Shown: in pieces, positions 7,103 through 20,000 of the stretch
Layout of the letters: each line of letters opens with the position of its first letter
Numbering within the stretch: the first letter of the stretch is position 1
NCBI RefSeq assembly: GCF_004010195.1
Contig: NC_057718.1
Span: forward strand, 85,348,917 to 85,368,916
DNA length: 20,000 nucleotides
Origin: Chiloscyllium plagiosum
Lineage: Eukaryota
Reading direction: 5' to 3'
The notes under the pieces: model-generated
What the model was told of the DNA's origin: nothing
The model's database searches: none
What the model saw: the letters and a program-made list of their open reading frames with translations, nothing else
Position numbers and translations under genes: made by a program

Positions 7103-7200
7103 GATTCTGGATTAGTAGTGCTGGAAGACCACAGCAGTTCAGGCAGCATCCAAGGAGCTTCGAAATCGACGTTTCGGGCAAAAGCCCTTCATCAGGAATA
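7103..7200 (-). mobile_element. Short Penelope-like terminal-repeat fragment
   Basis: gtgctggaagaccacagcagttcaggcagcatccaaggagc...gacgtttcgggcaaaagcccttcatcaggaat is homologous to 9371-9432, 9500-9586 and 19781-19855. It interrupts the host LINE. Confidence 0.75.
7168..7195 (-). ncRNA. Minimal hammerhead-ribozyme core, consensus-intact
   Basis: Minus strand: CTGATGA-a-GGGC TTTT GCCC-GAAA-C-GTC. Perfect 4-bp helix II, palindromic ACGT and GUC cleavage triplet; helix I is weak. Confidence 0.6.
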
Positions 7201-7422
7201 AGGAGACTGTTGGCTGTAACATATGATTTGGTGAATATGATTATGTCAAGCAGCTGCTTGAGGGACAGCAGGACAGTTCTCCCAATGCTGGCATAATCAC
7301 TGAATGTTAATGAGGAGAGTCTGTCAGAACTGACTCAGTAGGGTATGTCTTTGTCATTTCTCATGCCGAGTTTGATGCTGTGTTATCCATCCAGTTTTAT
7401 TCTCTTGCAGATGAGTTACTTG

Positions 7423-8510: not shown

Positions 8511-9368
8511 TCACATAACTGAACTCTTGTATAATTCTGGTAAACTTCCTCTACCCTTCTCTAAGTTGGCAAAATATAATGGGGTAGTTCTCAGCTCAAT
8601 GAATTCTGATGACATAAAAACCTCAAAATTCTTCTCATCGCTTATCAATCCATTCACCACTAGAAACATTTTTGTTTTTGAGGTGTTTTGAGGTCAGAAT
8701 ATCTTTTTATTTCCATGAGGTCAGAGACAAAGGATGAAACATTGACATATGATCTGAAATAATACCAGGTTGCTCATCTCTGAAGTAAGCATACTCCTTT
8801 AAGGAGAATGGATTGGTACAATTTGTTTCCTGTTATAAACAGCAATGTGAAATTTATGTGATTCACTAAAGTTGGATTCTGTTGATTCATGTAATTTGAG
8901 TCTGTTTACAGGTAGAATACTTATCAGTCAACCTGCTAAAGGCTGAAAGAAATATGAAATCAGAATACTTGTGAGATCATAGTATCTGATAGATGTGAGG
9001 GATCTTGTTGCTGCAGTTCTTGTGGGTTATAGGGGATCTTTTTACAGGAGAAATCAGTGACAAGGAGCCCAAAACAATATTCAATACAGATGCAAAATTT
9101 ACAGTGGTGCATATTCCCTGCCTGATTGATACGAGCTTCATATTGAAACTTGTTCTTAATACTTGCTTCACATTTCTTTTTCTACTGATTTTAAAAGTCA
9201 CTTTTAAATGTCACCCTTAACTCAATTTTAGCAACGTCGTGGACAGTGATACAATGCAGGGACAATTGTATGCACAAAGTGATGTAAACCCTGTGGATTT
9301 TTAAATTACAATATCACCACTTGTACCACTTAGGGTAACTTTTCCTTATGACCAACCAAAATGTGTTG

Positions 9369-9626
9369 ACAGTGTGGTGCTGGAAAAGCACAGCAGGTCA
9401 GGCAGCATCTGAAAAGCAGGAGAATTGATGTTATGCCCAAAACGTCCATTCTCTTCATTCCTGATGAAGGGCTTATGCCCAAAACATCTATTCTCTTCAT
9501 TCCTGATGAAGAGCTTATGCCTGAAACGTTGATTTTCCTGCACCTCGGATGTTGCCTGACCTGCTGTGCTTTTCCAACACCACACTCTCGACTCTGATCT
9601 CCAGCATCTGCAGTCCTCACTTTCTC
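9369..9626 (+). mobile_element. Penelope-like foldback insertion with tandem hammerhead-like cores
   Basis: 62-bp inverted arms (9371-9432, 9525-9586). 42-bp tandem unit about 2.5 times from 9431, with CTGATGA at 9461 and 9503. 17-bp TSD with one mismatch: ccaaCcaaaatgtgttg (9352-9368) and ccaaTcaaaatgtgttg (9627-9643). Confidence 0.85.
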
Positions 9627-9894
9627 CCAATCAAAATGTGTTGCATATTCTACAGCCTTAGCATTCAGAGAAGCATATCTACAGCATTAATGATAAAGTC
9701 TGATGACAGGTCAAGACTAGTGCCTGCATAGGATGAATGAGCATTGACAAGGTAGATTTGTTGTCTAAACACTGCGCTTTACAGTTATAGACTCAGAATT
9801 ATACAGCACAGAATCAGACCCTTCAGCATGTCCGATGAGAACATGGTAGTGCTACACCTGAAATAAGTTTTCTCTTTAATCTGCTTCCTCTCAG

Positions 9895-10059
9895 GCACAG
9901 CTGGAGGCCCAGAAAGTGACCCAAGATTTTCAACGAGCCACTGAGGTGGTGTGAGCGGCCAAAGAGACCATTGCTCTGACTGAACAGAGGCTACTGGAAG
10001 ACAAAGAACGTCAGTTTGATTCAGCGTGGCAAGAGATGCTTAATCACGCAACACAGCGG
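9895..10059 (+). CDS. SH3BP5: Internal coding exon of SH3 domain-binding protein 5 (Sab; Rab11 GEF coiled-coil domain), with an in-frame TGA at 9952-9954
   Basis: Pyrimidine tract plus cag acceptor (ttttctctttaatctgcttcctctcag) and gtaggc donor. 165 nt, phase 0-0, translating AQLEAQKVTQDFQRATEVV*AAKETIALTEQRLLEDKERQFDSAWQEMLNHATQR. Human SH3BP5 as I recall it: AQLEAQKATQDFQRATEVLRAAKETISLAEQRLLEDDKRQFDSAWQEMLNHATQR (7 differences). Missing from the ORF track. Orthologue versus paralogue or pseudogene is unresolved. Confidence 0.93.
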
Positions 10060-10299
10060 GTAGGCCCAACTCTAATCCACATGATTGAGTCTACAGGTGA
10101 CAAATCCTATACTGCTGTTCCTGAAGCCAACTTGCAGGAGAGTTTCTGGAGATCCTGGATTCTGATGCATGTACTTATTCATTAAAATGCATAGAAATAA
10201 AAATGATCCTGCTTGGCATGTTTGTTCACCTTTGCCTGATCTCAATTCCTCCCCTTCATTAATACTTAATTCTCACCTTATTCCAGGCCTTCAGATTGA

Positions 10300-10770
10300 A
10301 CCTTGGAGTAACTCTCCATAAGTTGTTGAAGTTGGCAGGAGAGGTAGATTAGATGGTCAAGAAGGGATATGGAATATTCATTGGCTCAGTCAAAGAGGAT
10401 GAGAAATAGGAGAGCTAAAGAAATGCTGTTGTTAAACTTAAAAGGGTTCAGAAATGATTTACAAGAATGTTGCCCACGGTTGAGAGTTTGACCTGTAGGG
10501 AGAGGCTGAATTAGGCTGGGGTTATTTTCCCTGGAGCTTCGGAGGCTGAGGGTTGACCTTATAAAGTTCTATAAAATTGCGAGGGACATGGATAGGATGA
10601 ATAGTCAAGATCTTTTTCCCAGGGTAGGGGAGACCAAAACTAGAGGGCATAGGTTTAAGGTGAGAGGGGAAAAATTTAAAAGTGAGGGGCAACGTTTTGG
10701 ATATGGGCCAAATGCTGGCAAATGGGAATAGATTAATTTAGGATATCTGGTTGGCATGGATGAGTTGTGA
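10300..10770 (+). mobile_element. CR1 LINE 3' region with internal deletions
   Basis: aaacttaaaagggttcagaaatgatttacaagaatgttgcc (KL.RVQK*FTRMLP), ggaggctgagggttgacctt, aactagagggcataggtttaaggtgagaggggaaaaattt (TRGHRFKVRGEKF), then 3' UTR ggatatgggccaaatgctggcaaatggga. Confidence 0.85.
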
Positions 10771-17297: not shown

Positions 17298-19778
17298 TCA
17301 TCCAAGTCTTGACAACGCATTGACAATCACATTTTGTCATTCTGCCACATGTTTAATTTTCAAATTAAATGGCTGCAGTAATAAGCTCCATCTAAAGAAT
17401 CTGGAATTTTTGTCCTTAAATTTCTCCAAAATCTTTAATGGGTTATGATAATTATATGTAATTGTCTCAGACACGTTGCTGTCAATATAAATGCTGAAAT
17501 GTTGTAATGCCAACACCAACCTTAAGGTCACCTTCTCAGTTGTGGAATATTTCTGTTGAATATTCAATTTCCAAAAGAAATATCCAATAGGTCTTTCTAT
17601 CTTTTCGTTGATGTGGTGTAAGAGTACAACACCCATAACGTTCGCATCAATAGCCACCCTCAATAGCTTTCCGTAATTAGGTGTGGCTAATACTGGGGCA
17701 GTGGTTGACACAGCTTTCAGACTGTCAAATGCCGTCTGACAGTCTGCTGTCCACTGAAACCTCTTGCACTCCTTCTGTAATTCAGTGAGTGGAGCAGACA
17801 CATTGCTAAAATTTGGTATGAATTTCTGATAAAACCCATTCGATCCCAGGAATCGTAGTACTGCTCTCTTCATTGATGGTATGGGAAACTTCCTAATAAC
17901 TTTTGTTTTCGCATTTCCGTGGGGCCATCTGTCCATGTCTGATAACATGGCCCAGGAATGTGACTTGGGCTTTGGCGAGTTCACTCTTAGCCAGGTTTAT
18001 CACCAAGTCTGCCTCCCAAAGTTGATCAGATAATTTCGATAAATGCTGCAAATGTTCCTTCCATACGTAACTAAAAGTCACCAGGTCATCGATGTATACC
18101 ATTCAATTGAGTAATCCAGCAATGACTTTCTTGGTTAGTCTTTGAAATGTGGCTGTCCTATTTTTTATAACAAATGGCATGGCTTTAAATTGGTATAGCT
18201 CATTTGGTGTTGCAAAAGCCAAAATTGTTTTCACTCTTTTGGATAAAGGTATCTGCCAATATCCAGTGAGCAAGTCCAACTTAGAAATAAGTTGCTTGTC
18301 CCACCTTCTCAATACAGTCTTCCAAACATGGAATCCGATATGAATCAGACTTTGTAACTGCATTGACTTTGCGATAGTCAACACATAACTGTTGGGTACC
18401 ATCTAGTTTTGGCACTATTACTATGGGTGAGTTTCAGTTGCTGTACCTCACTTTGATTATGGTGTCTTGGAGTGTGCATTTAATCTTTTTGAACCTGTGC
18501 CAACTTTAGAGGGTTAAGTCTATAAGAATGTTGCTTAACTGGAACAGCATATTCTGTATCTATATCATGCATAATTAAATTAGTACTTCCCAGCTTATTC
18601 CCACATATCTCCCCATGCGATAGCAATAACTCTTTCAGATCATTTTGATTTTCCTCTGGAAGGTAATTCAACAATTTATTCTGAGTTTTGAGAACTTCCT
18701 AATTGTCCAATTTAATTTGAGAAATGTCTAATTTAAAATCTTCTGAACATGGTTCTTCATAGAGTCATAGAGATGTACAGCATGGAAACAGAGCCTTCGG
18801 TCCAACCTGTCCATGCTGACCAGATATCCCAACCCAATCTAGTCCCACCTGCCAGCACTTTGTGTTGTAACCAGTAACACATTCTCTTTTTGCTTTCCTT
18901 CCCTATCAAAATACTTTTTGAGCATATTCACATGACATGCTCTGAGATTTCTTTCTATCTGAAGTCCTTATTAAATAATTCACCTCATTCAATCTCCTTT
19001 TGATTTGATAACATCTACTTTTAACTTCCACCTATCACTGGAAGTAACTCTAATCTCCAGTAGCAAAATTGTGCATTTTTGATTTCTTGTCTGCTTCCTG
19101 TTTCATTGTATGCTGTGATACTGTATTTTTAAATTCTGTCGAGTCAACTATCCCACTCCATTTAATTGTTCCCTAAAATTTGACACTTAGTCCAAGTATG
19201 TGGTCTTTGAATTCTGACTCCCAATTTTTCCTTAATTAATTTCAATGCTCCTCTCACCTCATACCCCAAAACTAATTCAAATGGACTGAATTTGGTTGAT
19301 TCATTTTGTTCATCCCAAATGGAAAAACAAACAAATGGAATTCATTTATCCCAATTGTCTGTATAATCTTGATTATAAGCCCTTAACATGGTCATTAAAG
19401 TTTGATTCCACCTTTCTAACACTCTGTGATTCTGGATGGTATGCAGTGGATATGAATCGTTTTGTTCCTAAGCTATCTGAATACTTTTGATGCAAAATTT
19501 GACTCTTGATCTGTTGTATCTCTATGGATAGTCTGTATCTAGTGAAAAATTTGAGTACTCTTTTACAATCTTTTTTACACTGTGATATTGCATAATGGAA
19601 TGGCCTCTGGCAATCTAGTGGACACATCCATTATTGTTAACAAATACAGATGACCACTTTTTATTTTAGATAGTGGTCCTATGCAATCAAGTTAGACCCT
19701 TGTAAAAGGTTACTCAAATGCAGGAATAGGTATTAAAGGTGCTGGTTTTATCATTGCTTGAGGTTTTCCAATTACCTG
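17298..19778 (-). pseudogene. pol: Decayed pol of a Gmr1-like Ty3/Gypsy retrotransposon: integrase (about 18900-19778), RT (about 17900-18560), RNase H (about 17298-17660)
   Basis: Integrase: QVIGKP..PAPLIPIP..PFTRV*LDCIGPL...YLLTIMDVSTRLPEAIPL...STAYHPESQ...FSPFELVLGYEVRG...CHVNMLKKY. RT: PVKQHSYRL...SKLDLLTGYWQIPL...YQFKAMPF...ATFQRL...VYIDDL. RNase H: VAIDAN...ERPIGYF...YSTTEK...HNPL...RWSLLLQPFN...NVIVNALSRLG*. Many frameshifts and stops. Confidence 0.93.
18757..18860 (-). mobile_element. 5'-truncated CR1 3' tail inserted between integrase and RT
   Basis: Reverse complement ends gctggcaggtgggactagattgggttgggatatctggtcagcatggacaggttggaccgaaggctctgtttccatgctgtacatctctatgactctatg, similar to 10715-10768 plus the short tandem tail. 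Confidence 0.85.
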
Positions 19779-20000
19779 CCAAAGCGCAGCAGGTCAGGCA
19801 GCAACAAAGGAACAGGAGCATTGACGTTTCGGGCATAAGCCCTTCTTCAGGAATGAGGAGGGTGTGCCAAGCAGGCTAAGATAAAAGGTAGGGGAGGAGA
19901 GACTTGGGGGAGGGGCGTTGGGAATACGATAGTTGGAAGGAGGTTAAGGTGAGGGTGATAGGCGGGAGAGGGGGTGGGGGCGGAGAGGTCGGGAAGAAGA
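19779..20000 (-). mobile_element. End of a Penelope-like element interrupting the integrase; continues past the window
   Basis: aaagcgcagcaggtcaggcagc...gacgtttcgggcataagcccttcttcaggaatg is homologous to 7120-7200 and 9385-9432, followed by G-rich sequence. Minus-strand core CTGAAGA-a-GGGCTTATGCCC-GAAA-CGTC at 19823-19850. Confidence 0.8.

Follow-up and report, generated by a model that had tools for sequence, protein, structure and literature searches.

The exon described here lies in a stretch of 20,000 nt of shark DNA (the window) and resembles an exon of SH3BP5, with a TGA codon within its reading frame. This locus raises the question of whether the stop signifies the loss of a Rab11 exchange factor, an allele or an error in the assembly, a codon that is recoded, or the decay of a second copy of a gene that is intact elsewhere.

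The exon and its premature stop

The exon occupies positions 9895-10059 of the forward strand (165 nt, 55 codons) and is preceded by AG at 9893-9894 and followed by GT at 10060-10061. Its codon 20 is TGA (9952-9954), the next codon is GCG, and the motif around the stop reads EVV*AAK. With the stop read as X, the exon matches the human SH3BP5 chains in PDB (6ixe/6djl) with E values of 1.7e-24 to 2.3e-24, and in a Pfam scan the part downstream of the stop matches PF05276 (E 1.7e-11). There are 898 protein matches to the exon at E <= 0.001, and the top of the best 120 of them is formed by SH3BP5 proteins of sharks, rays and chimaeras (91% identity). Protein alignment allowed us to assign the exon as a pseudo-exon copy of residues 89-143 of the 415-aa shark SH3BP5 protein, with borders in phase 0-0; no indels were found when the window exon was compared with shark SH3BP5 proteins by tblastn. 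The sequence-only reading of this DNA had proposed the same borders, splice sites, length, phase, stop position and TGA-GCG context. All of them proved correct, as did its identification of the gene, which the PDB and PF05276 matches corroborate, and its statement that the exon is free of indels, which holds against the shark proteins.

SH3BP5 is a Rab11 exchange factor. Four helices make up its GEF domain, a v-shaped coiled coil, which binds Rab11 via residues 39-67 and 240-262 (PMC6138693). The exon aligns to positions 112-166 of the human GEF-domain chain 6djl_B, that is within the coiled coil, and both Rab11-binding segments fall outside the positions that it matches. In Carcharodon and Cetorhinus, predicted 281-aa SH3BP5 isoforms X2 (P0142, P0144) start at a Met located in this exon (codon 48; 10036-10038 in the window), downstream of the TGA position, and would be without the N-terminal Rab11-binding helix.

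Against its homologues, 142 of 144 of which could be aligned to the exon, the window copy is less conserved than the sequence-only reading had suggested. Arg occupies the position of codon 20 in 140 of the 142. Four further codons encode residues that none of the 142 homologues has: A8V (9916-9918, a CpG-type change), L19V (9949-9951) and A29T (9979-9981), where Leu and Ala, respectively, are present in 142/142, and E37K (10003-10005, also CpG-type), where Asp is found in 108 homologues and Glu in 34. In the cartilaginous-fish cluster, 29 of 31 proteins hold the exon; 26 of these 29 are identical across it, and the remaining three vary solely at codons 27 and 32. The window copy has the residue of the shark consensus 89-143 at 50 of 55 positions, including the shark-type Ala27 and Glu38. 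The occurrence of five protein-changing differences within a block that is nearly invariant in cartilaginous fishes points to lost selection. The earlier impression of strong protein conservation on both sides of the stop is contradicted by these four substitutions, and while Arg was rightly named as the residue replaced by the stop, the window itself has EVV*AAK around it and not EVL*AAK.

Two versions of the exon in sequencing runs

Four of 24 matching sequencing runs were compared over positions 9630-10330 of the window at a likeness threshold of 85%: X1 (organism A, DNA, about 84% read), X9 (organism B, DNA, about 82% read), X12 (organism C, DNA) and X17 (organism A), the last being the single RNA-type run compared, with its RNA status guessed. 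None of the listed runs is recorded as RNA, which says nothing about expression. The query of the run search contained repeats, for which reason the small shares of X15-X20 were set aside, and the best DNA run has 0.68 of the query words. Contigs of these runs show presence and not absence, and rare forms are lost in them.

The exon is covered in full by two contigs of X1. One of them, record 4 (14.7x), carries the letters of the window, T9952 included. The other, record 5 (16.6x), departs from these at 12 letters, with C9952 among them, and they give Ala8, Leu19, Arg20, Ala29 and Glu37 together with seven silent changes, and thus the conserved shark protein. In the same run, single-copy flanks have a depth of 14.5-17x and an unrelated 2.3-kb contig a depth of 15.9x. 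Both versions are therefore present at full single-copy depth, where half of it would be expected of alleles. The only exon contig of X17, record 24 (11.8x), has all 12 listed letters of the paralogue, C9952 included, plus one unlisted difference. It is joined to both neighbouring exons, with YWEARRVTRL before and VMEAEQTKTR after in by-eye translation, as in shark SH3BP5. Since this record is spliced and has C9952, the spliced gene is the one with CGA; the record also confirms phase 0-0 of the exon. No TGA-bearing contig was seen in X17, a single RNA-type run with presence-only contigs. Inclusion of the exon in RNA, about which the earlier reading had wondered, is thus observed in this one run, with CGA and from the other copy.

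The TGA is common to contigs of organisms A, B and C. In organism B, record 25 of X9 (10.2x, 9678-10330) has T9952 and, in addition, a 1-nt insertion after 9982, the change Arg39His and a second stop, TAG, at codon 4. The intact copy is represented by record 32 (6.4x) of this run. In organism C, record 16 of X12 (4.9x) has T9952 and Ala52Ser; contigs of this run, in which the depth is about 5x and from which a filter may remove records, do not cover the parent exon. The intact parent copy was found in X1 record 5, X9 record 32 and X17 record 24, and databases contain intact 415-aa SH3BP5 proteins of Chiloscyllium punctatum, C. plagiosum, Hemiscyllium ocellatum and Stegostoma tigrinum. In place of the open frame with conserved residues of a functional SH3BP5 gene, the window copy has a TGA at codon 20 and the four residues without counterpart in the homologues, and its counterpart in organism B has a second stop and a frameshift.

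These results bear directly on the readings in which the TGA belongs to the SH3BP5 gene itself. A recent null allele of a single gene or a base-calling error in the assembly had been proposed from the window letters, and it may be said in favour of both that CGA to TGA is the commonest nonsense change and that the best DNA run has just 0.68 of the query words. However, the presence of T9952 in independent contigs of three species labels refutes an error, and a null allele is refuted by TGA in all three of them, by 12 differences in 162 exon letters and about 10-11% in the intron, and by two versions that each have full depth in X1 and differ in their flanks. Altogether, the TGA and CGA versions differ by 7-10%, which far exceeds the nucleotide diversity of 0.002 in the epaulette shark (PMC10587355), and we regard the probability of an allele or an error as negligible. 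We assign a similarly vanishing probability to the use of the exon in SH3BP5 mRNA by means of stop-codon readthrough, RNA editing or selenocysteine. Intact splice sites and an intact frame are all that favours it, whereas the spliced contig has all 12 listed parent letters and not C9952 alone, which indicates another locus, and the orthologous copy of organism B has acquired its second stop and frameshift. Earlier remarks on exon skipping and readthrough become moot, given that the one spliced contig observed derives from the copy with CGA. What remains of the sequence-only reading is a pseudogenised paralogue, which is not young and, as far as seen, is not a whole gene; its CpG change from CGA to TGA is supported by the C at 9952 of the paralogue. 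X and Y gametologues were considered and rejected, given that in X1 each copy is as deep as unrelated contigs and that the flanks of the two are not homologous.

Extent, surroundings and decay of the fragment

Alignment to paralogue contigs delimits a duplicated fragment at 9875-10303 of the + strand. It comprises about 20 nt of upstream intron with the copied polypyrimidine tract and AG acceptor (9875-9894), the exon, and about 244 nt of downstream intron beginning with the GT donor (10060-10303), which differs from the parent by about 10-11% and by several small indels. Parent intron sequence is thus kept on both sides of the exon. Record 32 of X9 (775 nt) aligns at 9875-10303 alone, with 202 letters before and 154 letters after this region unaligned and no joint listed; record 8 of X1 likewise ends at 10303, and the depth steps at the same places. 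The fragment is likely to be about 430 bp long with sharp edges, these limits being drawn mainly from X9 record 32. Its left edge appears firmer than the right one: the compared stretch stops 27 nt beyond 10303, and homology may resume past a LINE-like remnant. No other SH3BP5 exons were found in the 20-kb window by tblastn with 10 full or partial homologues, the other matches being scattered and having E values of at least 0.03.

The fragment is bracketed by a 7-bp direct repeat, ATAAGTT, at 9863-9869 and 10318-10324 (+ strand), which is a candidate target-site duplication. Its copies sit 6 and 15 nt outside the aligned ends and were noticed after the fact, and the chance of a common 7-mer in randomly drawn pairs of stretches is 2.5% for 25 nt and 5.5% for 35 nt. 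There is no poly(A) or poly(T) at either junction, the sole run of at least five A or T in 9821-10345 being at 10199. An AATAAA is present at 10196-10201, about 100 nt before the end of the fragment, and an old tail could have decayed. A TTTT/A target was not found at the junctions read by eye.

Repeats surround this region. Just upstream of the fragment, 9783-9826 is the end of a very high-copy repeat (summed depth up to about 18,700x in X1 vs. 16x for single copy). The right edge is adjoined by a LINE-like remnant that starts at about 10325; this remnant (about 10325-10770) and another at about 100-1000, both on the + strand, are presumably degraded CR1-type LINE reverse-transcriptase remnants, judged by eye from their motifs, and neither of them has a Pfam match. 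Further upstream, 9365-9630 is an interspersed repeat in inverted arrangement that contains a tandem duplication of 42 bp (9431-9521, 2.2 copies) and has related copies at 7115-7209 and 19781-19860; we take it to resemble a shark SINE. A decayed LTR-retroelement pol remnant lies on the - strand at 17337-18402, with RVT_1 in two frames (18106-18402 and 17896-18102) and an RNase H-like domain at 17340-17996; the region 19373-19630 looks integrase-like by eye, with no Pfam match. Of the 153 stop-free stretches with at least 45 aa, 150 were compared with Pfam, and SH3BP5 and retroelement domains were the only ones found. Intact SH3BP5 genes are located on sequences of 49.1, 49.4 and 69.1 Mb in three bamboo sharks and on a 163-Mb sequence in Stegostoma, and if the karyotype is similar to that of bamboo sharks, the copy would lie on a chromosome other than that of its parent.

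The window copy differs from the parent at 12 of 162 letters of the exon, 10 of 103 in one piece of the intron and 42 of 429 overall. The orthologous dead copies of organisms B and C are much closer to the window, with 15 of 653 (2.3%) and 25 of 726 (3.4%) letters different, respectively, and the duplication would accordingly be roughly 3-4 times older than the split of the three species labels. In the region 9630-9909, B (X9) and C (X12) both differ from the window at 9681, 9702, 9711, 9770, 9871 and 9879, and at 9879 the parent copy has the window letter, which suggests that B and C are nearer to each other than to A. The mutation rate of the epaulette shark, 7e-10 per generation (95% CI 1.4-14.1e-10; PMC10587355), would place the duplication tens of millions of generations ago, an estimate too loose for an absolute date.

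With intron divergence (0.097-0.114) as a neutral yardstick, the expectation for a copy that was dead from birth is 5.5-7.3 protein-changing differences and 3.6-5.9 silent ones relative to its parent. The listed differences comprise five of the former and seven of the latter, one more being unlisted, and all five protein-changing ones are in the TGA copy. Over the settings tried, P(N<=5) is 0.26-0.53 and P(S>=8) is 0.03-0.24. The load of changes fits neutral decay from birth and is not distinguishable from that expectation, although the numbers are small, the power is low and silent changes are slightly in excess; given this excess under some settings, there may have been a short spell under selection. 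CpG transitions account for three of the five protein-changing differences (9917, 9952 and 10003) and also for the change at 10010 in organism B. The four splice-site bases would survive drift of 5.5% with a probability of 0.80, and so their intactness needs no special explanation.

Origin of the fragment and known systems

In our opinion, the exon is very probably a dead second copy of one SH3BP5 exon, which arose as a lone templated insertion of an unspliced piece of about 430 bases at a distant site, with the parent gene left intact. The piece, derived from genomic DNA or from reverse-transcribed pre-mRNA, would have served as a patch at a chromosome break or at a nick made by a LINE. Without a promoter and partner exons, it would never have been under selection and would have drifted since its birth, with methyl-CpG deamination giving rise to three of the five changes, CGA to TGA among them. 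The splice sites would have persisted by chance, as is expected in about 80% of cases.

An alternative which deserves more attention than those considered above, although we find it rather unlikely, is that the exon is what survives of a larger SH3BP5 pseudogene formed by segmental duplication, the other exons being more than 10 kb away or deleted and the flanks broken by repeats. Shark introns are long, and given that, a lone exon in 20 kb is not unusual in itself; repeats are indeed present near both edges (9783-9826 and, by eye, the LINE-like sequence from about 10325), and the compared stretch is too short to show homology resuming on the right. What weighs against a larger duplication is that the 202 parent-contig letters upstream found no match in 245 upstream window bases at 85% likeness, with no joint listed, and that a 7-bp direct repeat brackets the fragment. 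It is still less probable, and in our estimation very doubtful, that an unseen host transcript on the + strand has taken up the fragment as a stop-bearing (poison) exon and that the splice sites have been kept for this use. In the window, the AG, the GT and the polypyrimidine tract are all preserved, none of the 40 listed difference rows affects them in B or C, and extra stops or frameshifts would be harmless to such a role. Nevertheless, the 0.80 chance of splice-site survival under about 5.5% drift makes this intactness unremarkable, the record of these sites in B and C covers the listed difference rows only, and no T9952 contig was seen in X17. Moreover, no domain of a host gene was found by Pfam in the 150 of 153 stop-free stretches, a scan that would miss short exons. 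Just as doubtful is a more elaborate scenario, in which a LINE reverse-transcribed a piece of SH3BP5 pre-mRNA that was inserted with a 7-bp duplication into an intron of a distant + strand host gene and now acts as an NMD-tuning poison exon kept across several shark species.

The dead templated copy that we favour removes a false alarm, since the parent copy of the exon is intact and nothing suggests the loss of SH3BP5 function: the shark has not lost this Rab11 exchange factor, and there is no sign of recoding. As an insertion common to organisms A, B and C, the fragment could be used to mark their clade, and in slowly evolving sharks it could provide a small neutral measure of how CpG sites decay. 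A further lesson is that an exon long dead may, in genomes of this kind, retain perfect splice sites and seem about 90% conserved.

Among the literature matches listed, as judged by titles and the starts of abstracts, neither those on SH3BP5 in sharks nor those on SH3BP5 pseudogenes reported this fragment, and the matches listed for bamboo shark pseudogenes were unrelated papers only. A literature search on templated insertions gave no match. The closest functional relative is SH3BP5 (SH3BP5b) of cartilaginous fishes, a PF05276 protein (XP_043575203.1, XP_072416726.1, XP_060706258.1, XP_048406858.1), with which the fragment shares the phase 0-0 borders and 50 of 55 residues. In contrast to that gene, the fragment has a stop and four missense changes, with no other exon in the window and no spliced contig seen.

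Templated sequence insertions of classes 1 and 2 occur as polymorphisms in humans (Onozawa and Aplan 2016, PMC5110952), with experimental insertions of 73-414 bp and with intronic donors reported as well. Class 1, which is LINE-mediated, is characterised by a TTTT/A target, a target-site duplication of at least 5 bp and a poly(A) tail that follows a polyadenylation signal by 10-30 nt, and class 2, the patching of breaks, by a distant intact donor and by junctions with microhomology, microdeletions or filler bases (PMC5110952). The shark fragment is likewise a short copy of a presumably distant locus with the donor intact, and, unlike the human polymorphisms, it is common to three species labels. 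The candidate 7-bp duplication would be a class 1 feature, whereas the lack of a poly(A) tail, of a nearby AATAAA and of a TTTT/A target is class 2-like; as the classes are described there, the fragment fits neither of them cleanly.

A processed (retro) pseudogene is not what we found, as the single exon is flanked by parent intron and the introns have not been removed. With unprocessed (duplicated) pseudogene fragments that are dead on arrival, the copy has in common the retained intron and splice sites, an intact parent in the same organism, disabling lesions, some of them lineage-specific, and neutral decay. It differs from a usual unprocessed pseudogene in apparently comprising one exon with sharp edges about 430 bp apart and not a whole gene. 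We file it as an unprocessed pseudogene fragment only, i.e., as an ordinary dead gene fragment, a further example of a well-known kind.
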